Shown here piece after piece: positions 567 through 24,844 of a stretch of DNA of 32,000 bases (positions are counted from its first letter, which is position 1; every line of letters begins with the position of its first letter). The notes under the pieces were generated by a model. The model worked only from the letters and a program-made list of their open reading frames with translations, was not told where the DNA came from and did not search any database. Source of the stretch: Candidatus Saccharimonadota bacterium (GTDB lineage: Bacteria; Patescibacteriota; Gracilibacteria; BD1-5; UBA6164); assembly GCA_965229705.1 (NCBI GenBank), contig OZ245922.1:480001-512000 (forward strand). Reading direction: 5' to 3'. A program made the translations under genes and the position numbers.

Positions 567-3065
567 TTAGCTTGCTTGTTCTTGTGCTTGCTGCCTTTTC
601 TTTTCTTCTATTTTTTCGAGTTGTTTCATGCGTTTTTCTTCTTCTTTTTTTTGTTTTAGCTCTTCTTTTCTCTTTTCCCACTCATCTTCTTGTTTTTCGA
701 TTTCTTGCATGGATTTATTTATTTTTTCCTCTACGAGCTCTTTTTTCTTACAATACCTTTCTCGTGAAACTTGGAGGATATTTTCATACCGCTCTCGAAA
801 CTCTTCAGGATCTTTTGGATGTGGAGGAAATGTTGCCGCTGAAAAAATAGGAGATGGCATTCCATCTATGAGTTGTTTGAGATATATCGTATACTTTTTT
901 TGGTTCATCAAGTCTTCTGCCTCTATATCCCCAGCAAAAGCTTCAGAGAGAAGTTTTGCATCATTGTGCCCTACCTGAAAAGACACAAGTGTTCAGACAT
1001 TTCCAAATACGGCTCATCTCACTGTTTCTGTCATTTGATCTATATACTGGTTTGCCATAACAAGATTGAGCTTATATTTACGAGCCTCTGAAAGAATGGT
1101 AGAAAAACTATCTGTAGCAAAGTTCTGAAACTCATCAACATAGAGATAAAAATCCTCTCGCTGATCTTCTGGGATATCTGCCCGACTCATCGCATCAAGC
1201 TGAAACTTCGTCACCATCATCGCTCAAAGCAGACTCGAAGCATCTTCTCAGATTTTTCATTTTGAGAGATTGACAATAATAATCTTCTTTTTATCCATTG
1301 CCCACCGCATAGAAAAAGAATTTTTTGGCTGTCACAATACATTTCTCAAAAGAGTACTTGAGAGAAATTGCCCAACCTTATTGAGTATCGGACCTGCTGT
1401 TTCATTTCTTTGCTGAGGAGTGAGTTTTCCATACTCGTGAGTCCAAAACTTTTTTACTACAGGATCTGTGATTTTTTTTATAACCTTATTTCTATACACT
1501 TCACTGGTAAGCATGAGCGGAATAGAAATCAGTGTCGTATTAGGGTACTCCATCAACGCCAACACCGTATTACGAAGTGTGTGTTCAAGTCTTGGTCACC
1601 AACTATCACCAAAAATTCTTTTAAAAATTCACACCAGTCCCGAAGCAATAAATGGTCGTTGTTCATCAGAAATATTTTCCAGCATATTAAATCCCAAAGG
1701 CCACTGTGTATCACTAGGGTCAAATATAATCGTCGCATTTGTTCTGTTTTTTGGAATGAGACCAATAATTCCTTCTGCCAAATCCCCATGAGGATCAATC
1801 ACGGCAACTCATCGTCATTTTTTAATATCATCGAGAATCATATTCTCTAAAAGTACGGATTTCCCCATACCTGTTTTTCCTATGATATAAGTATGTCTTC
1901 GTCTATCATTTGGTCACATACCAAAACTCATATCTGTACCTCGAAAATTTGTTTTTCCTATAGGGGTCAACTCTGACTCGGGAGAAATATCATCGCTCAG
2001 ATCAGCGTCAATAATCGGCAAATTACTCGGTGGTTCAAAGGCTCGACTACTCACCCAGTTGATATAGGGAGTTTTAACATACTGTGTTGGGAGATGTACG
2101 AGTCACGCGAGCTCTGGACTAGAAAGCATATTTGCCACATGTATTTCTCTATTTTTTACTCTGCGTATATCTGTAAAAGATCTGCTAATATTTCTCAGTG
2201 TGAGACTATTTTGCCCAAAATAAGAATATACCGAAAGAGTAGATGATATCTCCTTAATCGCCGAATGTACTTCCAGCTCATCCTCCCCAGCACACACTAC
2301 AGATATCTCTACCTCATATCATTCACTAGAAAGTTTTGCAAGAAACTTTGGATCGATTTTATCAGGATTTTCTAAAATATCATTTGCGTAGTCGACTTCT
2401 TCTTCTGGCGGGAGTGTTTCTCAAGTATCCTTATTTCATCTATTAAATAACAAAACAAGAAGTTTTCATAAAAGAAAAAAAGGAAAAAATATGATCTGAA
2501 AATACCAAAATAGTGGATGTAATAGTATATCTTTCAAAAACTGTGGATAATTTGCTTTGAGGACTTTAATAGTTCTCTTTGTATCTTTTTTCCAAATCTT
2601 TGACTTTATAGGACGAAAATTTACTTGAAAAGTATTGAGTGTGTATTTTCCCGTCTTTGAAAGGGCTCAAGTGAGTGATCCAAAAGGATCTATTTCTCAT
2701 CATTTTCCTGTTTTAACACTCTGATCCTCAAAAGTTTTGAGACTATAAAAAAAATGTTTCTTGAGTCCTATTTTTCATACGGCTATCTTGTCATCAGGGA
2801 CTCTCTCAAGATAATCTCATACCTCTCATATCTCTACATTGTGAAAGTGAGAATATATTTGATTTTGCAAAAATCCTTTATATTTTGCCGAACATATAAG
2901 AAAAAAACGAATCCTGTTTCCTACCTTGGTAATCTCAAAAGTAAAATTTTCTTTTTCATTTTTTCCAAGATATGCTCGATGAAGTATGACTAAAATCTCA
3001 TGAAATACGGCAGGACCTTTTTCGTTTTGCTTATCAACAAGAATTTCAAGAATAATTTTTTGCAT
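567..3065 (-). CDS. VirD4/TraD-like P-loop ATPase (the 'type IV secretion system DNA-binding domain' family common in CPR genomes) with a K/E-rich coiled-coil tail
   Basis: Track fragments 567-986, 1014-1220, 1332-1565, 2103-2297 and 2826-3167 are all in one frame and are joined only by TGA codons; I saw no TAA or TAG. Motifs include Walker A IIGKTGMGKS, AVIDPHGDL and Walker B LYVDEFQNF, followed by SEARKYKLNLVMANQY. I prefer the start at M35 (3065) over 3167, because 3079-3153 is occupied by the end of the upstream SOR gene. Confidence 0.8.
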
Positions 3066-3078
3066 ATCGCGAGTTTTT

Positions 3079-3555
3079 TTAATAGTTTTGTATATACCCT
3101 GTTCCCCAAAGTCCGTGTTGAGAACAACTTGCTCGAATCTCAAAGCTCTCCATTCATGATATATCAAACTCCGCTACAGGATCTTCATCTGGCATGATAA
3201 ATACCTCTTCTACAATATGCCCGTCTTCATCTATGAGATATATGGCTGTTATTCTATGATCTTCGCCTGCAGGGTGCATCTCCTCTTCTTCTCCGATACA
3301 TACTTCGATCTTGTGTTCATCATGGTAGAGGATTTTCGGAAGATGTTGGCGCTCAATATGAGAGAGATGTTCAGAATTATCTACATATATCACTTCATCT
3401 TCTATAGGAGAAAAGTCATCAAAACCCTCTCCACATCCCGGGCAATGAATATTCTCAGGAATCTCATCTATTCATGTTCCTGGAGAGATACCATCATCTC
3501 TTTCTCACAAAGATTCATCATAAATATATCAGCAATTCACGCAGAGAAATCTCAT
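3079..3555 (-). CDS. Rubredoxin-superoxide reductase (neelaredoxin-type) fusion protein
   Basis: The N-terminus reads MRFLCVNC(G)YIYDESL(G)ERDDGISPGT(G)IDEIPENIHCPGCG, where (G) marks a TGA codon. It is followed by QHLPKI, MHPAGEDHRITAIYL and ASCSQHGLW, which match SOR centre-II ligand motifs. The Cys/His ligands lie downstream of the TGA that ends track ORF 3154-3393. The true stop is TAA at 3079. Confidence 0.8.
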
Positions 3556-8586: not shown

Positions 8587-9486
8587 TTAGTTTTCTAGGG
8601 CTTCAATTCTTGCTTTGAGCTCTTCTATTTGGTTTTGTTGTTCTTTCACAGCTTCAAGTAACACGGCACTAAGTTTGCCATAATCAACGGACTTATAACC
8701 CTCATCATCACTACTAACGATTTGGGGATACACCGTTTCAACTTCTTGAGCGATAACTCCAATTTGTTGACTCTGATCTTTATCGGTATCTTTCCAGTTA
8801 TAGGTTACTCCTCGAAGTTTTTGTAGGTTTGCGAGTGGGTTTTGGAGTTTGGTAATATCGGTCTTGTAACGAGCGTCTGAGGTAGTATAACCACTAGTGA
8901 ATCGCGCTTTACCCGTTACATCCAGTTTATAAGAGGGATTTCTGTTCCCGATTCCAACGTTTCCATCAGTATACACCGCATCATCAGTATCGTCACCATC
9001 GACAAATTTACCGTTAGCAACGCTCGCTGAACTCCAATCTGGAGCTGTAGAGCTCCCTGGACAATTTCCGACACAAGAAGTAGAAATACTTTCTGAACGA
9101 ATACCTCACGCTACATCCAAGAGTTCTTTAGGAGAACTCGTTGATATTCATATATTCCCGGATACCTCATAAATACTTGTAGGCTGAAATATTGAGCCAT
9201 CAAACATTACTAAACTGTCAGTATCTCATGAACTGAACTCATCAAGTATTTTTAAAAAGACATTTCCTATTTTCCCATCTGTTCCAAATACCTTTGCAAT
9301 GATTTCTCACAGTTTTCCTTTTTGTTCTGCCTGAGTTGTTGGCAAGTTTGGATTTACTTGTTGCATATCATTGATACGAGGCTTTGTGAGATCAAAGTCT
9401 TGTTGCGTATCAGCAGCATATGAAAGAGGATTCGATACATGTACCACAAGAGTGCTAACGATACAAAGTGATAATAATAGTTTCAT
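8587..9486 (-). CDS. Secreted protein with a C-terminal peptidase-S74 / tail-fibre intramolecular chaperone domain
   Basis: The signal peptide is MKLLLSLCIVSTLVVHVSNPLSYAAD. The C-terminus reads SDARYKTDITKLQNPLANLQKLRGVTYNWKD...IGVIAQEVETVYPQIV...VDYGKLSAVLLEAVKEQQNQIEELKARIEALEN, which is the typical S74 pattern. The length is 900 nt, in frame with track ORF 8587-8976. Confidence 0.8.
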
Positions 9487-12454: not shown

Positions 12455-13888
12455 ATGAAGCCATCTTTCTTAAAAAAAACTCAGGGTTTTACTCTGGTAG
12501 AACTGATCACGGTAGTGACAATCCTCGCTGTACTCTCTGCTATAGGATTTGTCTCTTTTTCTGGGTATCTCGCAGGAGTACGAGATACCAATAGACTCTC
12601 ACAGCTCACATCTATCTATGACGGTTTAGAGCTCTACGCGACAAAGTATGATCTCCCTATGCCTGATGACGCTGTAGAGATACAAGACGGATCGAGTCTC
12701 TTAGGATACCAAGGAAATATTGGAGCAAATATCCTCGATATCCTCGACTTTAGTCGAGGAGGAGTTGATCCAAAAGATGATTCATATTTTGTGTATTATC
12801 TCTCTGCAGATAAAAGTGATTTTCAGCTTATGGCGTTTCTCGAGGAAGAACAAAATGTTCCAACGGTATTTTTTCCTCAAGCTTATGCAGAAAAAGACTA
12901 TAGCAATCTTTATCCAGTCGTATTTGGAGAAAAGTTAGGAATACTCCTTGATGAGACAACGAAAACTCCAGTCCATGAGATAGAGGCAGTCAAGACTGCT
13001 GGAGCGTTAGATTTAGATGGAAGCACGGAGAGTTATACTGCCTACTTTAAAAATGATGATACCGCAACGGATACAGGAGAAAATCTGTGAGAGACGATAG
13101 AGGAGGAGAGAGAGGAAGGGACGAGTAGTTCGAGTGTTTCGAGTAGTTCAACTACTGCTTCTACTGCGCCTACTGATTGGAGAGATCAAGACCCAAACTG
13201 TGACAGAGCAGATGTGACTATCTGAACACAAACTTGGGCATGATGTAACTCGACTCTGGGAACATGATTTGAGTTTTGACAAAAAGATGCGGATATAGGA
13301 ACGAATAATTATAGTGGATCGGTAGGTAGTTGTTACAACTATAACGGAAACAATTCCGCCACTTGTATCAAGTGAGACATAACGATGGCGAGTACCTCTA
13401 AAGCCAATGATTGGTTTACCGGAACGAATAATGATGGAGATACTGCCGTAGATAATATATGGGGAAAGTTCTACACTTGGGATTCTCTCGATACTGATAA
13501 TGATGATGATATAGACGCAAATGATACCAACCTCGTCTGTTGAGTGTGATACCATGTACCAAGTGAACTCGAATGGGAAACACTGGAAGAATACTTGAAT
13601 GGATCAGCTTGTAGAACTACAAGTAATTGACAATGCGACTGACAGTGATGGCAGTACCACTCAACGACTAATAGTGATAGCAGTATTGCTGCTCTCCTAC
13701 AGATTCCTTTGAGTGGTTGGAGGAGTAATAATACATTCAATAGTCGTGGGTACTATGGGTATCTATGGTCTAGTACGGTAAATGGATCTGAGGCTTATAG
13801 GAGAGGATTCAGTAATCTCTATACTACTGTTGATAGTAACAATCGTACACAATCGAATTGATATTCAGTCAGATGTATCAAGGATTAG
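12455..13888 (+). CDS. Type IV pilin N-terminal module fused to a FISUMP (Fibrobacter succinogenes major paralogous, TIGR02145-like) domain, copy 1
   Basis: The protein starts MKPSFLKKTQ-G|FTLVELITVVTILAVLSAIGF, followed by a 211-aa TGA-free pilin module and a boundary TGA (13088-13090). The linker is ETIEEEREEGTSSSSVSSSSTTASTAPTDW. The FISUMP part reads VTI(G)TQTWA(G)CNS...IWGKFYTWD...C(G)V(G)YHVPSELEWETLEEYL...LWSSTVNGS...SN(G)YSVRCIKD, ending at TAG 13886-13888. Confidence 0.9.
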
Positions 13889-13894
13889 GTATAA

Positions 13895-13925
13895 AATCCC
13901 GGGCTTCAGCCCGGGATTGTTTTTG
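13895..13925 (+). terminator. Intrinsic terminator after copy 1
   Basis: The sequence is aatcccgggc-ttca-gcccgggatt followed by gttttt. Confidence 0.65.
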
Positions 13926-13951
13926 GGGATTGCTCTGTACTCTAGAGAAAG

Positions 13952-14040
13952 CTCTGAGAAACAAAAAATTTCTCATCCTCTCTGGCTCTCACGAGCCATC
14001 TCTCCTTTGCAAAAGGAGAGAGAAAAGGAGTTTCTCAGAG
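13952..14040 (+). repeat. Structured intergenic repeat ('E element'), complete copy
   Basis: The outer stem is ctctgagaaac/gtttctcagag. It encloses the hairpins ggctc-tcac-gagcc and tctctcctt-tgca-aaggagaga. Confidence 0.7.
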
Positions 14041-14145
14041 CCTGTTTAACCCCGGGGTTGTTTTTTTAAGAAGAACTATATCCACACACAAGATTCTTTC
14101 TTGAGTCAACGAAAAAACTCTTGCTCTATTGTATTTTCGTGAAAA

Positions 14146-14176
14146 AGAAGTATTTTTCTCTTGGAAAATACTTTCT
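14146..14176 (+). promoter_or_regulatory. Conserved inverted repeat upstream of copy 2
   Basis: This is the same sequence as 12411-12441, offset by 1735 nt. Confidence 0.3.
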
Positions 14177-14189
14177 TAATTATTTCTTT

Positions 14190-15629
14190 ATGAAGTCATC
14201 TTTCTTAAAAAAAACTTAGGGTTTTACTCTGGTAGAACTGATCACGGTAGTGACTATCCTTGCTGTACTTGCAGCTATAGGATTTGTCTCTTTTTCTGGG
14301 TATCTCGCAGGAGTACGAGATACCAATAGGCTTTCTCAACTTACATCTATCTATGACGGTTTAGAGCTCTACGCGACAAAGTATGATCTGCCTATGCCTG
14401 ATGACGCTGTAGAGATACAAGACGGATCGAGTCTCTTAGGATACCAAGGAAATATAGGAGCAAATATCCTCGATATCCTCGACTTTAGTCGAGGAGGAGT
14501 TGATCCAAAAGATGATTCATATTTTGTGTATTATCTCTCTGCAGATAAAAGTGATTTTCAGCTTATGGCATTTCTCGAGGAAGAACAAAATGTTCCAACG
14601 GTATTTTTTCCTCAGGCATATGCCGATAAAGACTATAGTAATCTTTATCCAGTCGTATTTGGAGAAAAGTTAGGAATACTCCTTGATGAGACAACGAAGA
14701 CTCCCGTTCATGAGATAGAGGCAGTCAAGACGGCTGGAGCGTTAGATTTAGATGGAAGCACGGAGAGTTATACTGCCTACTTTAAAAATGATGATACCGC
14801 AACGGATACAGGAGAAAATCTATGAGAGACGATAGAGGAGGAGAGAGAGGAAGGGACGAGTACTTCGAGTGTTTCGAGTAGTTCAACGACTGCTTCTACT
14901 GCTCCTACAGACTGGAGAGCTCAAGACCCAAATTGTGACAGAGCAGATGTGACTATCTGAACACAGACGTGGGCATGATGTAACTCGACGCTGGGAACAT
15001 GATTTGAGTTTTGACAAAAAGATGCGGATATAGGAACGAATAACTATAGTGGGACGGTAAGTAGTTGTTACAACTATAACGGAAACAATTTCACTTGTAT
15101 CAAGTGAGACATAACGATGGCGAGTACCTCTAAAGCCAATGATTGGTTTACTGGAACGAATATATATGGAGATACTGCCGTAGATAATATATGGGGAAAG
15201 TTCTACACTTGGGATTCTCTCGATACGGATAATGATAATGATATAGACGCAAATGATACGAACCTTGTATGTTGAGTGGGATACCATGTACCAAGTAGAG
15301 CAGAATGGGAAACACTCGAAGAATACTTGAATGGATCAAATTGTAGAACTTCAGACAGTGATAGTTTCCAGTGTAAATGACAGTGATGGACGTACCACTC
15401 AACGACTAATAGTGATACAAGTATTGCCTCAGTCCTCCAGATTCCTCTGAGTGGTTGGAGTAATAGTAGTAAAACATTCTATGGTCGTGGGTACAATGGG
15501 TCTCTATGGTCTAGTACGGTAAATGGATCTAATGCTTATAGAAGATATTTTGCGTATAATAATACCCAAGTCTATAGTGACGATGTTTCACAATCGAATT
15601 GACATTCAGTCAGATGTATCAAGGATTAG
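14190..15629 (+). pseudogene. Pilin-FISUMP copy 2, interrupted by a TAG nonsense codon at codon 10
   Basis: The gene reads ATG AAG TCA TCT TTC TTA AAA AAA ACT TAG GGT TTT ACT CTG GTA GAA. The TAG at 14217-14219 replaces the CAG (Gln) found in the other three copies. The rest of the 480-codon frame is intact through TGA codons down to TAG at 15627-15629. Confidence 0.7.
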
Positions 15630-15697
15630 GGATTTTTGAACGCCGGGGTGTAGCCTGGAGTTTTCTTTTTGGGGATTGCTCTGTACTCTAGAGAAAG

Positions 15698-15787
15698 CTC
15701 TGAAAAACAAAAAATTTCTCATCCTCTCTGGCTCTAAACTAGCCATCTCTCCTTTGCAAAAGGAGAGAGAAAAGGAGTTTCTCAGAG
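15698..15787 (+). repeat. E element, complete copy
   Basis: The architecture matches 13952-14040. The small hairpin variant is ggct-ctaaac-tagcc, and the outer stem has one A/C mismatch. Confidence 0.7.
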
Positions 15788-15794
15788 TCTGTTT

Positions 15795-15828
15795 AACCCC
15801 GGGGTATGATACCCCGGGGTTGTTTTTT
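15795..15828 (+). terminator. Intrinsic terminator hairpin
   Basis: The sequence is aaccccgggg-tatgata-ccccggggtt followed by gtttttt. Confidence 0.6.
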
Positions 15829-16035
15829 GGGTGTTTAGAGAAAAGAGAGAAAACAGTTTTCCCCTCCCTTACCAAGGGAGGGGCTAGGGGAGGGTTATAC
15901 TTCTAGAGAGAGTTCTGAGTTTAAGTTTGAACCCCGGGCTACAGCCCGGGGTTCAAACTTAAAACAGTATACAAAGCATACTTCATACCTTTTCGCAAGA
16001 GATATTTTTCGCTTTTTTTCAAAAAATCTATTAAC

Positions 16036-17310
16036 ATGAAAATAATATTAAGAAGTAGTAAAAATATGACAGTAAATGATAAATACTCTGAAGTATGAGA
16101 AATGAAAATGCAAGAAAATCTCTGAGATGTCGTAGAGTACGTTGCATCTATTTTTAAGAATGCTATAGATTTTTGAGCTTCTGATATTCATATAGAACCC
16201 ACACAGCACTTTTTGCTGATTCGTTTTCGACAAGATGGGGATTTTCACATGATTGATAAAGTACATCTTGATAACGCCTCTGCAATTATTACTAGACTCA
16301 AGGTACTCTCAAAAATCAAGATAGATGAAAATAAAAAACCTCAAGACGGAAAAATCGTATACGAATACGAAAACTCTCAAGATCACAGCAAAGAACATAT
16401 AGATATTCGTCTCTCCACTCTTCCAACAAATTATGGAGAAAAAATCGTGATGCGTATTCTCAAACAGGATGACTCTCTCACAAATATTGAAGCGCTCGGA
16501 CTCATAGATGTCAATGTAGAAAAAGTACGCGAAGCGCTCAAAAGTAAATATGGAATTGTATTAGTTGCTGGTCCAACAGGGTCAGGAAAATCAACCACGC
16601 TTTTTGGAGTTCTCAAACACTTTAATCCTCTCGAGTACAATATATCAACTCTCGAAGATCCAATAGAATACGATATTGAGTATGTAAATCAATCTCAGGT
16701 ACATCCATGAATTGATTATACCTTCGCCTCTGGACTGAGGAGTCTCGTACGTCAAGATCCCGATATCATTATGGTATGAGAAATCCGTGATAAAGAAACG
16801 GCAACTCTCGCTGTAGAAGCCGCACTTACTGGACACCTCGTACTTTCTACGATTCATACCAACTCTGCAACCGCAACAATTCAAAGACTTATTAATATGT
16901 GAGTAGAACCATTTTTGCTTGCAAGTGCTATGAAGATGGTTATATCTCAAAGACTCTGAAAAAGACTCTGTAAAAACTGTAAGGTTCCTGAAGAACTCAG
17001 TGATTTTAAGAAAAAAAAGGTACACTCATACCTTGATAGTATTATGGATCCAAAAGAAGTAGACTCTATTGTTTTCTATAAAGCTGAGTGATGTGAAGTA
17101 TGCCATAACTCATGATATAAATGACGACTCGGAATACATGAGGTACTGATAATAGAAGAATACATCGAACCCATGATCCTCGCAGAAGAAAGTGCTACCA
17201 GTATACAAAGAGAAGCAATGCAGCACGGCATGATCACTATTGTACAAGATGCTCTCTTAAAAGCAGCTATCTGAAATACGAGTCTTGATGAAGCATTTAA
17301 ACTTATTTAA
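16036..17310 (+). CDS. pilB: Type IV pilus assembly ATPase PilB/GspE family, short form, copy 1
   Basis: Motifs are [29 protein letters not shown](G)[16 protein letters not shown], and CxxC...CHNS(G)YK(G)RLGIHEVL. The length is 1275 nt, in frame with track ORF 16213-16710. Confidence 0.9.
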
Positions 17311-17315
17311 AAACT

Positions 17316-17642
17316 ATGTTTGGAAGAGGAAAAAAAGTAAATTTTAAAGATATAAAAAACTTTCGCGATGCCGTGAGAGCTATAAGATGATATATCTATC
17401 TTTCTGAGTGGGTCAAAGCAAATACTGCTATTACTGAACTAGAAGACAAAGAAAAAGCTGCCTTTGAGGAGCTAGAACATCATCTAAAAAATGATTATAC
17501 AGAACTACAAAAACAGAAAAAAAAGTACGAGAAAAATAGATCTGAGGCTTATAGGAGAACTTTTTGGCATGAGAGTACCAACGTCCTTAGTAACGATTCT
17601 CCACAATCGAATTGATTTTCAGTCAGATGTATCAAGGATTAG
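17316..17642 (+). pseudogene. Chimeric junction ORF: codons 1-76 of the PP2C/SpoIIE gene fused in frame to the last 32 codons of a FISUMP domain
   Basis: The product reads MFGRGKKVNFKDIKNF...KKKYEKNRS|EAYRRTFWHESTNVLSNDSPQSN(G)FSVRCIKD*. It diverges from the full-length gene after 'aatagatctg' (17544 versus 23174). The FISUMP copies carry 'aatggatctg' at the equivalent point. Confidence 0.7.
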
Positions 17643-17648
17643 GTATAA

Positions 17649-17678
17649 AATCCCGGGCTGAAGCCCGGGATTGTTTTT
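17649..17678 (+). terminator. Intrinsic terminator hairpin
   Basis: The sequence is aatcccgggc-tgaa-gcccgggatt followed by gttttt. Confidence 0.6.
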
Positions 17679-17705
17679 GGGGATTGCTCTGTACTCTAGA
17701 GAAAG

Positions 17706-17780
17706 CTCTGAGAAACAAAAAATTTCTCATCCTCTCTGGCTCTCACGAGCCATCTCTCCTTTGCAAAAGGAGAGAGAAAA
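17706..17780 (+). repeat. E element, 3'-truncated copy
   Basis: The 5' outer arm and both inner hairpins are present. The 3' arm is replaced by cggtgttcccctctc..., consistent with a deletion between gagagaaaa direct repeats. Confidence 0.6.
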
Positions 17781-17962
17781 CGGTGTTCCCCTCTCTTCGC
17801 GTATAAGAGACCAGTCTCGAAAATGAATGTTTGTTTGAGTCTTGAGTAGCAACCCCGGACTGAAAAACTCCGAGTTGCTTTTGTAAAAGAGCTATATTCA
17901 CACACTAGAGTCTTTGCTGAGTCAAGTAAAAATCCTGTAAGTCATTGCGTTTTCCACAAAAG

Positions 17963-17990
17963 GAAGTATTTTCCTCTTGAGAAATACTTC
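17963..17990 (+). promoter_or_regulatory. Conserved inverted repeat, with a candidate -10 box, upstream of copy 3
   Basis: The repeat is gaagtattt-tcctcttgag-aaatacttc, preceded by TTGCGT, 16 nt and TATTTT. Confidence 0.3.
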
Positions 17991-18004
17991 TTTAACATTT
18001 CTTT

Positions 18005-19453
18005 ATGAAGTCATCTTTCTGTAAAAAAACTCAGGGTTTTACTCTGGTAGAACTGATCACGGTAGTAACAATCCTCGCTGTACTCTCTGCTATAGGATTT
18101 GTCTCTTTTTCTGGGTATCTCGCAGGAGTACGAGATACCAATAGACTTTCTCAACTTACATCTATCTATGACGGTTTAGAGCTCTACGCGACAAAGTATG
18201 ATCTGCCTATGCCTGATGACGCTGTAGAGATACAAGACGGATCGAGTCTCTTAGGATACCAAGGAAATATTGGAGCAAATATCCTCGATATCCTCGACTT
18301 TAGTCGAGGAGGTGTTGATCCCAAAGATGATTCATATTTTGTGTATTATCTCTCTGCAGATAAAAGTGATTTTCAGCTTATGGCGTTTCTCGAGGAAGAA
18401 CAAAATGTTCCAACGGTATTTTTTCCTCAGGCATATGCCGATAAAGACTATAGTAATCTTTATCCAGTCGTATTTGGAGAAAAGCTTGGAATACTCCTTG
18501 ATGAGACAACGAAGACTCCTGTTCATGAGATAGAGGCAGTCAAGACGGCTGGAGCGTTAGATTTAGAGGGAGACACAACGAGTTATACTGCCTACTTTAA
18601 AAATGATGATACCGCAACGGATACAGGAGAAAATCTGTGAGAGACGATAGAGGAGGAGAGAGAGGAAGGGTCGAGTACTTCGAGTGTTTCGAGTAGTTCA
18701 ACGACTGCTTCTACTGCTCCTACAGACTGGAGAGCTCAAGACCCAAATTGTGACAGAGCAGATGTGACTATCTGAACACAGACGTGGGCATGATGTAACT
18801 CGACGCTAGGAGCATGACTTGAGTGGTGACAAACAGATGCGGATATAGGGACAAATAATTATAGTGGATCGGTAGGTAATTGTTATGATTATAATGGAAA
18901 CTACATAGATACAAGTAACTGTACTGCATGAGATATAACGATGGCAAGCAACTCAAAGGCTAATGACTGGTTTACTGGAACGAATAATAATGGAGATACT
19001 GCCGTAGATAATATATGGGGAAAGTTCTATACTTGGGATTATCTCGATACAGATAATGATAACGATATAGACGCAGATGATACGAACCTCGTATGTTGAG
19101 TGGGATACCATGTACCAAGTAACAGTGAATGGGAAACACTCGAAGAATACTTGAATGGATCAAATTGTAGAACTTGAAATGGTTACCAGTGTGACTGACA
19201 GTGATGGACGTACCACTCAACAACGAATAGTAATACAAGTATTGCCTCAGTCCTCCAGATTCCTCTGAGTGGTTATCGTACTGATCTTGATAATAAAACA
19301 TTCTATCATCGTGGGAGATATGGGTATCTATGGTCTAGTACGGTAAATGGATCTAAGGCTTATAGAAGAATGTTCACTTATAATAGTACCGAAGTCTATA
19401 GCGGCGATACTTCACAATCTGCTTGATATCCAGTCAGATGTATCAAGGATTAG
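18005..19453 (+). CDS. Pilin-FISUMP fusion, copy 3
   Basis: It starts MKSSFCKKTQ-G|FTLVEL. The pilin module is track ORF 18005-18640, with the boundary TGA at 18638-18640. The FISUMP domain contains 10 further TGA and ends ...SA(G)YPVRCIKD at TAG 19451-19453. Confidence 0.9.
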
Positions 19454-19459
19454 GTATAC

Positions 19460-19489
19460 AATCCCGGGCTGAAGCCCGGGATTGTTTTT
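19460..19489 (+). terminator. Intrinsic terminator hairpin after copy 3
   Basis: The hairpin is the same as at 17649, offset by 1811 nt. Confidence 0.6.
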
Positions 19490-19516
19490 GGGGATTGCTC
19501 TGTACTCTAGAGAAAG

Positions 19517-19591
19517 CTCTGAGAAACAAAAAATTTCTCATCCTCTCTGGCTCTCACGAGCCATCTCTCCTTTGAAAAAGGAGAGAGAAAA
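19517..19591 (+). repeat. E element, 3'-truncated copy
   Basis: It matches 17706-17780 at an offset of 1811 nt, with the loop variant tgaa instead of tgca. Confidence 0.6.
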
Positions 19592-19773
19592 CGGTGTTCC
19601 CCTCTCTTCGCGTATAAGAGACCAGTCTCGAAAATGAATGTTTGTTTGAGTCTTGAGTAGCAACCCCGGACTGAAAAACTCCGAGTTGCTTTTGTAAAAG
19701 AGCTATATTCACACACTAGAGTCTTTGCTGAGTCAAGTAAAAATCCTGTAAGTCATTGCGTTTTCCACAAAAG

Positions 19774-19801
19774 GAAGTATTTTCCTCTTGAGAAATACTT
19801 C
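19774..19801 (+). promoter_or_regulatory. Conserved inverted repeat upstream of copy 4
   Basis: It is identical to 17963-17990. Confidence 0.3.
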
Positions 19802-19815
19802 TTTAACATTTCTTT

Positions 19816-21264
19816 ATGAAGTCATCTTTCTGTAAAAAAACTCAGGGTTTTACTCTGGTAGAACTGATCACGGTAGTAACAATCCTCGCTGTACTCTCTG
19901 CTATAGGATTTGTCTCTTTTTCTGGGTATCTCGCAGGAGTACGAGATACCAATAGGCTTTCTCAACTTACATCTATCTATGATGGTTTAGAGCTCTACGC
20001 GACAAAGTATGATCTGCCTATGCCTGATGACGCTGTAGAGATACAAGACGGATCGAGTCTCTTAGGATACCAAGGAAATATAGGAGCAAATATTCTCGAT
20101 ATCCTCGACTTTAGTCGAGGAGGTGTTGATCCCAAAGATGATTCATATTTTGTGTATTATCTCTCTGCAGATAAAAGTGATTTTCAGCTTATGGCATTTC
20201 TCGAGGAAGAACAAAATGTTCCAACGGTATTTTTTCCTCAGGCATATGCCGATAAAGACTATAGTAATCTTTATCCAGTCGTATTTGGAGAAAAGCTTGG
20301 AATACTCCTTGATGAGACAACGAAGACTCCTGTTCATGAGATAGAGGCAGTCAAGACGGCTGGAGCGTTAGATTTAGAGGGAGACACAACGAGTTATACT
20401 GCCTACTTTAAAAATGATGATACCGCAACGGATACAGGAGAAAATCTGTGAGAGACGATAGAGGAGGAGAGAGAGGAAGGGTCGAGTACTTCGAGTGTTT
20501 CGAGTAGTTCAACGACTGCTTCTACTGCTCCTACAGACTGGAGAGCTCAAGATCCTAATTGTGACAGAGCAGATGTGACTATCTGAACACAGACTTGGGC
20601 ATGATGTAACTCGACGCTAGGAGCATGACTTGAGTGGTGACAAACAGATGCGGATATAGGGACGAATAACTATAGTGGGACAATAAGCGCTAATCAAGGT
20701 TGTTATAATTACGGAAATACTTCTTGAGTAGCTTGTACCAAGTGAGATATAACGATGGCGAGTACCTCTAAAGCCAATGATTGGTTTACCGGAACGAATA
20801 CATATGGAGATACTGCCGTAGATAATATATGGGGAAAGTTCTACACTTGGGATTCTCTCGATACGGATAATGATAACGATATAGACGCAAATGATACGAA
20901 CCTTGTATGTTGAGTGGGATACCATGTACCAAGTGAACTCGAATGGGAAACACTGGAAGAATACTTGAATGGATCAGCTTGTAGAACTACAAGTAATTGG
21001 CAATGCCACTGACAGTGATGGAAGTACCACTCAACGACAAATAGTGATAGGAGTATAGCAGCATTATTACAAATTCCTCTGAATGGTTATAGGAGTAGTA
21101 GTAGTAAAACATTCTATACTCGTGGGAACTATGGGTATCTATGGTCTAGTACGGTAAATGGATCTAATGCTTATAGAAGATATTTTTGGTATAATAGTAC
21201 CAACGTCGCTAGTGACGATGTTCCACAATCGTATTGACTTTCAGTTAGGTGTATCAAGGATTAG
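19816..21264 (+). CDS. Pilin-FISUMP fusion, copy 4
   Basis: The pilin module protein is identical to copy 3 (track ORF 19816-20451). The FISUMP domain is divergent and ends ...SY(G)LSVRCIKD at TAG 21262-21264. Confidence 0.9.
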
Positions 21265-21327: not shown

Positions 21328-21417
21328 CTCTGAGAAACAAAAAATTTCTCATCCTCTCTGGCTCTAAACTAGCCATCTCTCCTTTGCAAAAGGAGAGAGA
21401 AAAGGAGTTTCTCAGAG
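21328..21417 (+). repeat. E element, complete copy
   Basis: The outer stem ctctgagaaac/gtttctcagag is perfect. Otherwise it is identical to 15698-15787. Confidence 0.7.
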
Positions 21418-21665
21418 TCTGTTTAACCCCGGGGTATGATACCCCGGGGTTGTTTTTTGGGTGTTTAGAGAAAAGAGAGAAAACAGTTTTCCCCTCCCTT
21501 ACCAAGGGAGGGGCTAGGGGAGGGTTATACTTCTAGAGAGAGTTCTGAGTTTAAGTTTGAACCCCGGGCTACAGCCCGGGGTTCAAACTTAAAACAGTAT
21601 ACAAAGCATACTTCATACCTTTTCGCAAGAGATATTTTTCGCTTTTTTTCAAAAAATCTATTAAC

Positions 21666-22940
21666 ATGAAAATAATATTAAGAAGTAGTAAAAATATGAC
21701 AGTAAATGATAAATACTCTGAAGTATGAGAAATGAAAATGCAAGAAAATCTCTGAGATGTCGTAGAGTACGTTGCATCTATTTTTAAGAATGCTATAGAT
21801 TTTTGAGCTTCTGATATTCATATAGAACCCACACAGCACTTTTTGCTGATTCGTTTTCGACAAGATGGGGATTTTCACATGATTGATAAAGTACATCTTG
21901 ATAACGCCTCTGCAATTATTACTAGACTCAAGGTACTCTCAAAAATCAAGATAGATGAAAATAAAAAACCTCAAGACGGAAAAATCGTATACGAATACGA
22001 AAACTCTCAAGATCACAGCAAAGAACATATAGATATTCGTCTCTCCACTCTTCCAACAAATTATGGAGAAAAAATCGTGATGCGTATTCTCAAACAGGAT
22101 GACTCTCTCACAAATATTGAAGCGCTCGGACTCATAGATGTCAATGTAGAAAAAGTACGCGAAGCGCTCAAAAGTAAATATGGAATTGTATTAGTTGCTG
22201 GTCCAACAGGGTCAGGAAAATCAACCACGCTTTTTGGAGTTCTCAAACACTTTAATCCTCTCGAGTACAATATATCAACTCTCGAAGATCCAATAGAATA
22301 CGATATTGAGTATGTAAATCAATCTCAGGTACATCCATGAATTGATTATACCTTCGCCTCTGGACTGAGGAGTCTCGTACGTCAAGATCCCGATATCATT
22401 ATGGTATGAGAAATCCGTGATAAAGAAACGGCAACTCTCGCTGTAGAAGCCGCACTTACTGGACACCTCGTACTTTCTACGATTCATACCAACTCTGCAA
22501 CCGCAACAATTCAAAGACTTATTAATATGTGAGTAGAACCATTTTTGCTTGCAAGTGCTATGAAGATGGTTATATCTCAAAGACTCTGAAAAAGACTCTG
22601 TAAAAACTGTAAGGTTCCTGAAGAACTCAGTGATTTTAAGAAAAAAAAGGTACACTCATACCTTGATAGTATTATGGATCCAAAAGAAGTAGACTCTATT
22701 GTTTTCTATAAAGCTGAGTGATGTGAAGTATGCCATAACTCATGATATAAATGACGACTCGGAATACATGAGGTACTGATAATAGAAGAATACATCGAAC
22801 CCATGATCCTCGCAGAAGAAAGTGCTACCAGTATACAAAGAGAAGCAATGCAGCACGGCATGATCACTATTGTACAAGATGCTCTCTTAAAAGCAGCTAT
22901 CTGAAATACGAGTCTTGATGAAGCATTTAAACTTATTTAA
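21666..22940 (+). CDS. pilB: Type IV pilus assembly ATPase PilB/GspE family, copy 2
   Basis: As far as I can read it, the nucleotide sequence is identical to 16036-17310. Confidence 0.9.
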
Positions 22941-22945
22941 AAACT

Positions 22946-24844
22946 ATGTTTGGAAGAGGAAAAAAAGTAAATTTTAAAGATATAAAAAACTTTCGCGATG
23001 CCGTGAGAGCTATAAGATGATATATCTATCTTTCTGAGTGGGTCAAAGCAAATACTGCTATTACTGAACTAGAAGACAAAGAAAAAGCTGCCTTTGAGGA
23101 GCTAGAACATCATCTAAAAAATGATTATACAGAACTGCAAAAGCAGAAAAAAAAGTACGAGAAAAATAGATCTGTGATCATCCAACTCAAAAAAGAATAT
23201 GAAGTAAAAAAAATCAAGTATGAGAGAAAAATATCCTCAGAAAAATTTCATGTTCGCTTTGATAGTATCAAGAAAGAAATAGAAAAACTTTCTCTTGAGT
23301 GAGACGGTACAGAAGCACTCGCTGCACTCACATCTTTTTTTGAAGAAAACAAAAACAACTATCAAGTAGTTTTATATTACGCCAGAGAAAAGAAGAGAAT
23401 TGCGAAAAATATGAAAAAACAGGATATTTTTAAAAAGAAGAAAAAAAAGCAAAGTACCGAACTTGAGGCTCTCAGGCTTGCGGGAATCACACTGAAAAAT
23501 CAAAAAATTGCCGAACAAGAAAAAGAAAAACAAATAAAAGAAAACCAACAAAACTCATTTTTTTGACGTATAAGAGAATCGATAAATTTTCATAAAAAAC
23601 TCAAAGCAAAATATAGAGAAAAACAACTCCTCGATGAGATTCGACTCCTCACCGAAGAAAGCTCTAAGGTAAAGCAAGATATTGCCAAGCAAAAACTCTC
23701 TCATATGCATCAATGACTGATTAAAGAAATAGAGAAAAATCATCTCATAGGTTTTGATCTCTACGGAAAAATACTTGGTTCTGACAAGATATCTGGAGAC
23801 TGCTTTGGTATGTATGAAAGTAAGGAGAAATATAGCTTTTATATGGGAGATGCTACAGGACACTGAGTACAGGCATGACTCATCGTATCGATACTCTCAA
23901 AAACTTTTACAGAACAAGCACGAAAAGATGATATTGTGAATCTGGTATATCAGATAAATAATACTCTGAAAGAGTCTCTTCAGTCAAAGCACTTTATTAC
24001 AGGAATGATATTTGAGATAGATAAAAAGTATAAAAATATCGTCAATATTGCAGGAATGTGACATGAACCACTTCTGATATATAGAGCTGAAACAAAAACT
24101 GTTGAAAAGTTTATCGCTGGAGGACTAGCAGCCGGTATTCGATACATCAAAAAACCGGAAGATATCAAACCAAAACCTGTTGAAATACATGATGGAGATA
24201 TTTTTATGAGTTATAGTGACGGGGTCATAGAGACAAAAAATGCTGAGTGAAACATCTATACGATTGATAAACTTGCTGAAACTCTTTGAAGAGTAGCTCC
24301 AGAAGCAAAAGATATTAAAGATCTCTACAGTCTCATTATGCAAGATGTAGAAGCTCATAGATGATGAACAAAGTTTGATGATGATGCAAGTATTTTTATC
24401 TTTTCACGAAACTCAGAAAAAGATCTCCTCACCGAATGATCTGAGGAACTATCAAGTGTTGCCCAAAAAGAAGGGTTTACCATGAAAGATATGAAATCTC
24501 TGGAATGAAAAAGAAAAGTAGAACTCAAAGAAGAGGTAGAGAAAATCAAACATGAAAAAAAGCTTGATAGTATTATCAATTCCCTCAAAGGACATTACTA
24601 TACTGGTGAGTATCTCAAACTCAAAGAAGAAGCAACAAGATATGTAAAAGAAGGTTTTGTACATGAAAAAATTAATTTTTACCTCAAAAAAGCACTTGAA
24701 AATGAGGATAACTATAAAATATCTCAAAAAAATACAAAGATGAGTAATAAATATATGGTTCTCCAAGAACTCTATAAAAAGAAAGAATACACCAGCGTTA
24801 TACAAGAGTGTAATGAAATAATTGCCAAAGATGGAAATATTTAA
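22946..24844 (+). CDS. Coiled-coil protein with a PP2C/SpoIIE-type serine phosphatase domain
   Basis: The domain reads ...ISGDCFGMYESKEKYSFYMGDATGH(G)VQA(G)LIVSILSK...ITGMIFEIDKKY...IAGM(G)HEPLLIY...IFMSYSDGVIETKN...FDDDASIFIF. The length is 1899 nt from ATG 22946 to TAA 24842-24844. Confidence 0.8.

Follow-up and report, generated by a model that had tools for sequence, protein, structure and literature searches.

Mosaic FISUMP heads in a tandem array of modular type IV pilins from a Gracilibacteria genome: a probable case of gene conversion between paralogues

How do neighboring genes come to share nearly identical first halves and yet differ, block by block, in their second halves? The question is raised by four tandem genes in the genome of a Candidate Phyla Radiation (CPR) bacterium, contained in a stretch of 32,000 nucleotides that we refer to as the window (assembly GCA_965229705.1, contig OZ245922.1, positions 480,001 to 512,000 of the forward strand). 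Each gene joins a type IV pilin module to a FISUMP domain, for which IPR011871 is, we take it, the InterPro entry (Fibrobacter succinogenes paralogous domain). An earlier note on this DNA had ascribed the blocks to recombination among the copies. We consider it probable, at roughly two chances in three, that a modular pilin gene has been amplified within this lineage and that gene conversion between the paralogues diversifies their heads, with a small repertoire of adhesin heads as the result.

Recognizing the genes depends on the genetic code that is applied. Under table 11, the open reading frames (ORFs) between 12.4 and 21.3 kb terminate at a TGA that follows the residues TGENL (for example at 13088-13090), and past this TGA the same frame continues perfectly, broken by TGA alone. 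Under table 25, in which TGA encodes glycine, there are four co-oriented tandem genes of 477-482 codons, here called copies 1 to 4 (c1 to c4), with a single ORF per copy, 10-12 in-frame TGA codons per gene (12 in c1), and a terminal TAG in each. Eight of the 12 TGA codons in c1 stand opposite an invariant or nearly invariant glycine of homologues that NCBI annotates to Candidatus Gracilibacteria, and the named relatives of the window's PilB, with identities of up to 83%, are all Gracilibacteria. Because the TGA codons align with glycine and the PilB relatives come only from this group, we read the window with code 25 and assign the organism to the Gracilibacteria, within the CPR/Patescibacteria. 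In the public protein set, tryptophan is entered at the TGA positions of these genes, and c1 and c2 are present only from Met69; such genes come out split or mistranslated unless code 25 is applied.

Three of the four copies are intact. In c2, codon 10 (14217-14219), which immediately precedes the prepilin cleavage site, reads TAG and not the CAG of c1, c3 and c4. No other damage to the gene is seen; c2 is probably a pseudogene or silent copy that is not expressed as a pilin. Every pilin gene of the array also carries an A8 or A7 homopolymer in codons 6-8 (12472-12479, 14207-14214, 18023-18029 and 19834-19840). These tracts are possible slipped-strand sites, and all four are in frame here.

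The earlier note had described pilin modules that differ at about six residues or fewer, with c3 and c4 identical as proteins. Over residues 1-211 we found 0-6 differences between copies, with c3 and c4 identical and the remaining comparisons at 4-6. With a fifth paralogue included, the FISUMP half has 64 variable positions out of 234, and these are clustered, forming 70 runs against 94 expected (p = 2e-4). The proposal that variation is confined to patches of the FISUMP domain is therefore correct as to the clustering and too strict as to the confinement, since the pilin-module DNA has about 4-5% differences, mostly synonymous. The upstream regions of c1/c2 and c3/c4, put earlier at about three-quarters identity, are 77% identical over 150 nt, whereas the pilin-module DNA is 95-96% identical.

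All of the blocks that had been singled out are present: the one after NNYSG, GTN(ND/IY/NN/TY)GD, PS(EL/RA/NS/EL)EWE, CRT...QC..QGW, and the last ~35 residues. They are combined differently from copy to copy, just as had been reported, with SELEWETLEEYLNGSACRTTSN common to c1 and c4 and NGSNAYRRYF common to c2 and c4. Positions that vary among the paralogues coincide with positions that vary across the family (entropy of 2.70 versus 1.71 bits, p = 7e-15), and only one of 40 strongly conserved scaffold positions varies. By secondary structure, the variable positions include residues of C-terminal beta-strands in addition to loops.

To describe the combinations of blocks we classed informative sites by the pairing of the four sequences that they support: A for c1c2/c3c4, B for c1c3/c2c4, and C for c1c4/c2c3. 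The 61 informative sites read, in order, AAABBAABAAAAAAAAACAAAAAAABBBBAACAACBABCCCCCCCCCCCCCAAABBCBACB. Over the whole gene they form 23 runs against 39 expected, and local incompatibility is far below the permuted values (p <= 1e-4). The FISUMP half alone behaves in the same way, with 18 runs against 29.6 (p <= 1e-4) and a p <= 4e-4 for a statistic like the pairwise homoplasy index (PHI). Codons 1-285 support the grouping c1c2/c3c4, and codons 376-422 hold 13 consecutive sites that support c1c4/c2c3. Sliding windows place the same changes along the gene: c3 and c4 show 0-3 differences per 90 nt up to codon 285 and 24-47 beyond it; c1 has 2 differences from c4 over codons 376-405, and 25 from c2; and c2 and c4 show 1-2 differences over codons 316-375.

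Shared blocks could in principle arise by convergence. Within codons 376-422, however, four synonymous sites (codons 382, 400, 401 and 422) have the same pattern as the nonsynonymous sites, and we therefore attribute this tract to common descent and rule out convergence as the source of the shared blocks. That the copies have exchanged sequence is, in our view, evident from the alignment; the direction, mechanism and timing of the exchange we infer. Recombination or segment shuffling between copies, as first suggested, is thus backed by the permutation tests (p <= 1e-4), by the synonymous sites, and by the patchwork of a paralogue outside the array, to which we now turn.

c3 and c4 (as exact code-4 translations) and c1 and c2 (from Met69) all lie on one NCBI/ENA contig of 1,006,762 bp, and on that contig the same 1.0-Mb genome has at least four further paralogues (P0110, P0101, P0111 and P0008). 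P0110 is full-length, at 485 aa. Its N-terminus is c1-like, its GAGLEWGQTD is c3/c4-like, and its NYIDTSNCTAG is c3-like; a stretch of about 105 residues (TNIYGD ... SGWSN) matches c2 exactly, and its tail is unique. From these matches P0110 reads as a clear mosaic of c1, c3 and c2 blocks. P0101 and P0111, at 230-232 aa, stop within the linker and have no head; P0008 is a diverged protein of 273 aa.

Related loci bear on the origin of the array. One (L003), whose PilB is 78% identical, has the same locus with one pilB and no pilin-FISUMP gene, and in another (L004, GCA_028689115.1) a single pilin-FISUMP gene adjoins the pilus locus. Because these loci hold none and one such gene, respectively, we regard the four-copy array as a lineage-specific amplification. 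Three tandem pilins of the same family are present on a further related contig (L001, 907-5068). Two of them have pilin-module DNA that is 97.5% identical yet have different heads, with a CDM.SDGGGWT motif that we take to resemble fibrinogen-type domains, and the third has a short FISUMP-like head. Other Gracilibacteria combine this pilin module with Laminin_G_3, fibrinogen_C, DUF285 or PF26707 heads.

The architecture of the proteins is that of a modular pilin. In c1, a prepilin leader that ends in glycine ahead of FTLVE opens the pilin module (aa 1-211), which is followed by an acidic Ser/Thr-rich linker (212-241) and the FISUMP domain (about 242-477). The N-terminus, MKPSFLKKTQG and, after the cleavage site, FTLVELITVVTILAVLSAIGF, conforms to the class III signal peptide, in which a short basic leader runs up to a Gly and is followed by a hydrophobic stretch of about 20 residues with Glu at +5. 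PF07963 (N_methyl) matches at 26.3 bits (cut-off 21.2) and TIGR02532 at 25.4 bits (cut-off 16.3). PF09603 (FISUMP) matches at 62.1 bits (cut-off 33.9) over profile positions 1-187 of 187, and TIGR02145 at 56.3 bits (cut-off 41.65). N_methyl and PF09603 thus occur within one ORF, joined by a linker, which is the sequence pattern of modular pilins. The nearly invariant cysteines of the FISUMP head (C249, C264, C304, C362 and C474) are all present.

An AlphaFold model of c1, for which the input was the code-4 public translation from Met69, has a predicted local distance difference test score (pLDDT) below 50 at linker residues 223-236 and of 85-96 in the head; the domain of a Gracilibacteria FISUMP lipoprotein, modeled as a proxy, scores 94-98. 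A sequence search of the PDB with the FISUMP head yielded no relatives. A fold search against the PDB gave best matches that are weak (E = 0.06-0.5, TM-scores of 0.3-0.4). None is significant; the top 22 are, with few exceptions, snake-venom or human C-type lectin-like proteins or the Bacteroides fimbrial protein 4EPS. We take the head, which is disulfide-rich, to be probably C-type-lectin-like. Fib_succ_major/DUF1566 domains have been described as targets, of C-type-lectin type, of diversity-generating retroelements (DGRs), which diversify them at the C-terminus, and a superposition of 4EPS on TvpA, a variable protein of a DGR, has been published (PMC5758913, PMC4159848). In the paralogues described here, variation is greatest in the same C-terminal stretch, which by analogy would fit a ligand-binding surface.

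We next asked what selection accompanies the exchange, using pairwise Nei-Gojobori estimates of the ratio of nonsynonymous to synonymous substitution rates (dN/dS). The ratio is 0.04-0.2 in the pilin module, 0.3-0.5 in the FISUMP half, and 0.75-2.6 in the last 62 codons (426-487). Over these 62 codons c2 and c4 differ by 19 nonsynonymous and 2 synonymous changes, which is not significant (p about 0.16, by a rough binomial estimate). Diversifying selection on the FISUMP tails is plausible from these ratios. The earlier claim, which placed such selection on putative binding loops, is no more than suggested by the dN/dS of 2-2.6 in some tail pairs, as the counts fall short of significance. Synonymous divergence (dS) is 0.03-0.17 in the pilin module versus 0.23-0.44 in the FISUMP half. 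Since dS in the pilin module is below that in the FISUMP half and below the divergence of the upstream spacers, the comparison argues that, besides purifying selection, homogenizing conversion acts on the 5' module.

The array lies within a pilus locus with the order pilin, 311-aa protein, array, PilB, SpoIIE phosphatase, PilC, pilin and PilT. The assembly genes inside the window are those for PilB (two copies), PilC and PilT, the pilB assignment resting on a T2SSE match at E = 1e-117, and no prepilin peptidase gene was seen within the 32-kb window. The pilB gene is doubled by a perfect 1.8-kb repeat (Table 1). Between its two copies lies an orphan tail (17545-17642), the end of a FISUMP gene, which is joined at ~17,540 to a truncated phosphatase gene via a 6-bp microhomology, GATCTG. 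Two substitutions distinguish the repeats just upstream of this joint. The orphan tail marks the junction of a segmental duplication of 5.63 kb, by which pilB too was doubled. It had been described as starting like c1 (SEAYRR) and continuing like c4, and our alignment agrees.

A conserved non-coding block of ~165 nt follows every FISUMP stop, in five copies. It starts with a terminator-like hairpin (AATCCCGGGCTTCAGCCCGGGATT, then a T-run), continues with two further hairpins, is rich in CCCGGG palindromes, and is better conserved than the coding tails. Its minimum free energy is -67.8 kcal/mol (z = -5.7). Terminators numbered 20 against 6 expected, and Rfam at gathering thresholds gave no matches in the window, this block included. 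The block may be a terminator, a 3' untranslated region element, or a repeat that aids duplication of the unit.

Table 1. Positions of the array, its variable segments and the accompanying repeats within the window
Feature	Position	Strand	Description
Copy 1 (c1)	12455-13888	+	Intact bimodular pilin, 477 aa, code-25 ORF
Copy 2 (c2)	14190-15629	+	479 codons, architecture as c1, TAG at codon 10
Copy 3 (c3)	18005-19453	+	Intact bimodular pilin, 482 aa; exact code-4 translation on the public 1,006,762-bp contig
Copy 4 (c4)	19816-21264	+	Intact bimodular pilin, 482 aa; pilin module identical to c3 as protein
Variable block A, SVGSCYNYNGNNSATCIKG (c1)	13319-13375 (c1); 15054-15107 (c2); 18869-18931 (c3); 20680-20745 (c4)	+	Most divergent patch, with indels
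PS(EL)EWE...CRT..QC..QGW segment, c1	13562-13654	+	Inside the tract (alignment codons 376-422) that groups c1c4 / c2c3
Hypervariable C-terminal 33 residues	13787-13885 (c1); others 15528-15626, 19352-19450, 21163-21261	+	Beta-strands that end the FISUMP domain
Repeat copy 1	15700-17520	+	1.8 kb, 100% identical to 21330-23150, offset 5630; pilB 16036-17310 and 5' end of phosphatase gene
Repeat copy 2	21330-23150	+	pilB 21666-22940; start of intact SpoIIE-type phosphatase gene 22946-24844
Chimeric 108-codon ORF	17316-17642	+	First 76 codons of the SpoIIE-type phosphatase gene, fused to the last 33 codons of a FISUMP gene
Conserved structured non-coding block	13886-14050; others start at 15630, 17643, 19454, 21265	+	After every FISUMP stop
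G-quadruplex-type motif GGGAGGGGCTAGGGGAGGG (19 nt)	15876-15894; duplicate 21506-21524	+	Between c2/c4 and pilB

Three other genes of the window are recorded here. A 299-aa secreted protein with a C-terminal Peptidase_S74 domain, an intramolecular chaperone of endosialidase/tail-fibre type, is encoded at 8587-9486 (-) and adjoins minor-pilin-like genes. An 832-aa TrwB/TraD-like coupling ATPase is encoded at 567-3065 (-), and there is likewise one near the pilus locus of L004. The gene adjoining it, at 3079-3555 (-), encodes a rubredoxin-desulfoferrodoxin fusion protein.

Taken together, we propose the following account. The array was built by unit duplications and by the 5.63-kb segmental duplication with its 6-bp microhomology joint, which also doubled pilB and left the orphan tail; this much we regard as demonstrated. 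Homologous, non-reciprocal recombination (gene conversion) would then operate among the four copies and with paralogues elsewhere in the genome. Such conversion would homogenize the pilin module and linker, adding to purifying selection, and in the head it would reassort patches at family-wide variable positions, leaving the Cys/Trp/Gly scaffold untouched. The conserved pilin module would act as a carrier that admits the protein to the type IV pilus, with the FISUMP head attached by a flexible Ser/Thr-rich linker. The outcome would be alternative ligand-binding heads on the pili, most plausibly attaching to host or prey cell surfaces, that is, a putative pilus-displayed repertoire of ligand-binding heads. 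Copy 2, knocked out by its nonsense codon, would stay usable as a sequence donor. Recombination between paralogues accounts for the block structure, for the homogenized 5' module, and for an identical pilB repeat beside diverged genes.

Several observations weigh against this account. Clusters of differences private to one copy (c1 codons 48-51 and 142-150; c2 codons 22-28) call for donors beyond the four copies, possibly further paralogues or different strains. Behind the orphan tail the spacer belongs to the c3/c4 type, not to that of c1, and the exact history of duplication is not reconstructible. Four sequences do not suffice to establish positive selection statistically, the tail dN/dS above 1 involving few sites. 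The assignment to a C-type-lectin fold is weak (PDB matches at E >= 0.06, TM-scores of 0.3-0.4). To our knowledge, no ligand is known for any FISUMP domain.

The private clusters also lend some weight to a different source for the mosaic, namely recombination mainly with DNA of other strains, taken up for example through the competence/type IV pilus machinery. Several such clusters lack a donor among the four copies, and a role in DNA uptake has been proposed for the type IV pili of these bacteria (PMC11452946, PMC8080830). Intragenomic donors do exist, however, for c1/c4 (codons 376-405), c2/c4 (316-375), c3/c4 (1-285) and P0110/c2 (~105 residues), and no closely related strain appeared in any collection searched: protein and degenerate N-terminal DNA queries of genome contigs, and one metagenome-contig scan, found no match. 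We consider foreign DNA an improbable main source.

A shade less probable still is a programmed, high-frequency variation of the heads like that of Neisseria pilE/pilS, in which c2, the orphan tail, and P0101/P0111 would donate sequence and conversion would be initiated, for example, at a G-quadruplex (G4). It would explain why c2 is maintained apart from its premature TAG, and why partial copies exist (the orphan tail and the truncated paralogues); a 1.8-kb flank that is 100% identical beside differing genes speaks for very recent recombination activity. There is also the motif GGGAGGGGCTAGGGGAGGG, of G4 type, which lies ~247 nt downstream of c2 and of c4 and is the sole such motif in the window, where 0.007 are expected. 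This motif, however, lies on the downstream side of the genes, shares part of its sequence with a hairpin, and is missing at the related loci L001 and L002. Three of the copies are complete, with conserved upstream regions and their own terminators, and the potential donors are not 5'-truncated promoterless cassettes. The dS between copies, at 0.1-0.4, indicates an evolutionary and not a somatic time scale. The variable-adhesin cassette system that the earlier note had in mind is a loose analogy only, given that each copy is a full-length gene that has an upstream region and a terminator to itself, and that the window shows no recombinase, reverse transcriptase or invertible segments. Were switching programmed after all, a clonal population would keep varying the host surface glycans that its pili recognize, initiation might occur at the G4 motif or at the CCCGGG-rich hairpins that flank the genes, and in functional terms the system would parallel pilin variation in Neisseria, acting on a grafted lectin head rather than on the pilin itself.

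The chance is small that the pattern is an artefact of assembly, with variants from co-existing strains wrongly joined through the repeats of the pilin module and of pilB. The source is an assembly of an uncultured organism, the region is highly repetitive, and the 1.8-kb repeat is perfectly identical. The four copies and the paralogues are nonetheless all on one public contig of 1,006,762 bp; the 6-bp joint we judged too short for a k-mer mis-join, and two substitutions separate the repeats before it; and two distinct spacer types flank the copies consistently.

A DGR elsewhere in the genome, mutagenizing the tails with the orphan tail or another copy as its template repeat, is very unlikely, and we rejected that mechanism for this window. 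In its favor, FISUMP/DUF1566-type domains are recognized DGR targets, diversified in exactly this C-terminal part (PMC5758913, PMC4159848); in some tail codons positions 1 and 2 vary and position 3 is fixed; and a GC-rich hairpin follows each stop codon. Against it, there is no reverse transcriptase among the ORFs of the window and no adenine bias (the orphan base is adenine in just 3-5 of 16-24 differences between the orphan tail and a copy, transitions make up about half of all differences, and roughly a dozen columns of the tail are without any A), the variation extends to patches far from the tail and is shared block-wise between copies, and the orphan tail shares the downstream flank of the genes and is explained by the duplication junction. 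A shufflon or other inversion was likewise rejected, as the inverted repeats are palindromic hairpins only, all genes are co-oriented, and there is no recombinase in the window. More generally, the 32-kb window encodes no reverse transcriptase, recombinase or transposase.

Amplification with gene conversion between paralogues, which we thus prefer, can be set beside several known systems. The nearest in architecture are the modular pilins of Streptococcus sanguinis, PilB with a vWA head and PilC with a lectin head, both of which are adhesins (PMC8179133, PMC9934059); pilins built in this way are widespread. The combination IPR012902+IPR011871 is among the 15 commonest modular-pilin architectures, and a Gracilibacteria protein is among the 15 representatives (PMC8179133). 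In both organisms the genes lie within a type IV pilus locus. The present genes differ in that there are four tandem copies and more elsewhere, with heads reassorted by recombination, and in that these are FISUMP-headed pilins for which pilus incorporation and adhesion are only predicted.

Neisseria pilE/pilS offers a likeness in mechanism: short tracts pass non-reciprocally between pilin copies and leave a mosaic over a conserved N-terminal part, there are non-expressed potential donor copies, and a G4 motif is in the neighborhood. The classical pilE/pilS organization is nevertheless absent here. Neisseria has one expression locus and 5'-truncated, promoterless silent copies, whereas most of the copies described here are complete genes (three are full-length and intact, and only c2 and the orphan tail are non-expressible). 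The G4 that Neisseria requires is upstream of pilE, whereas the motif here is downstream and of putative relevance. In Neisseria it is the C-terminal region of the pilin itself that varies, whereas here it is a grafted head, and on an evolutionary time scale as far as is visible.

The shufflon of R64 is another system in which a type IV pilus adhesin-like pilin, PilV, acquires alternative C-terminal ends, and these decide to what the pilus binds. There the Rci recombinase switches the C-terminal segments of PilV, for which it needs inverted sfx repeats flanking invertible segments. The copies here, by contrast, are co-oriented, with inverted repeats that are only hairpins and with no recombinase gene in the window. 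Comparable paralogue families that evolve by gene conversion are Helicobacter babA/babB and the MgPa repeats of Mycoplasma genitalium. The lpl lipoprotein clusters of Staphylococcus aureus are tandem surface-protein paralogues that reportedly evolve by gene conversion (Tsuru & Kobayashi 2008, PMC2568036). Families of this kind resemble the present array: their paralogues, in tandem or dispersed, combine conserved with variable segments and are related as mosaics, and what is conserved may run from one 3' end across the spacer into the following 5' end, as from c3 to c4 here. They differ in that the array involves another protein family, in a CPR bacterium with code 25, and that its conserved segment is a pilus-assembly module.

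With the DUF1566/Fib_succ_major proteins that DGRs diversify (Legionella LdtA; category 'd' in PMC5758913), the FISUMP pilins share the domain family, a variable C-terminal stretch, and surface exposure. They differ from these DGR targets in that the window has no reverse transcriptase, template repeat or adenine pattern, and in that the diversity is spread over paralogues via recombination. The same part of the domain would thus be diversified by recombination between paralogues here and by DGRs elsewhere, which we count as indirect evidence that ligands are bound at the C-terminus. Modular pilins and adhesin families under gene conversion are each already known; it is their combination in a CPR bacterium that appears to be new. 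In the literature that we searched, amplification and head reassortment of such pilins in a CPR bacterium appear to be undescribed.

Host recognition by the ultrasmall episymbionts of the CPR/Patescibacteria is largely unknown, and type IV pili are the leading candidates for it (PMC11623550, PMC11452946). The array described here is a concrete candidate determinant of specificity in such recognition, and its variable patches indicate which residues would matter for that candidate specificity.

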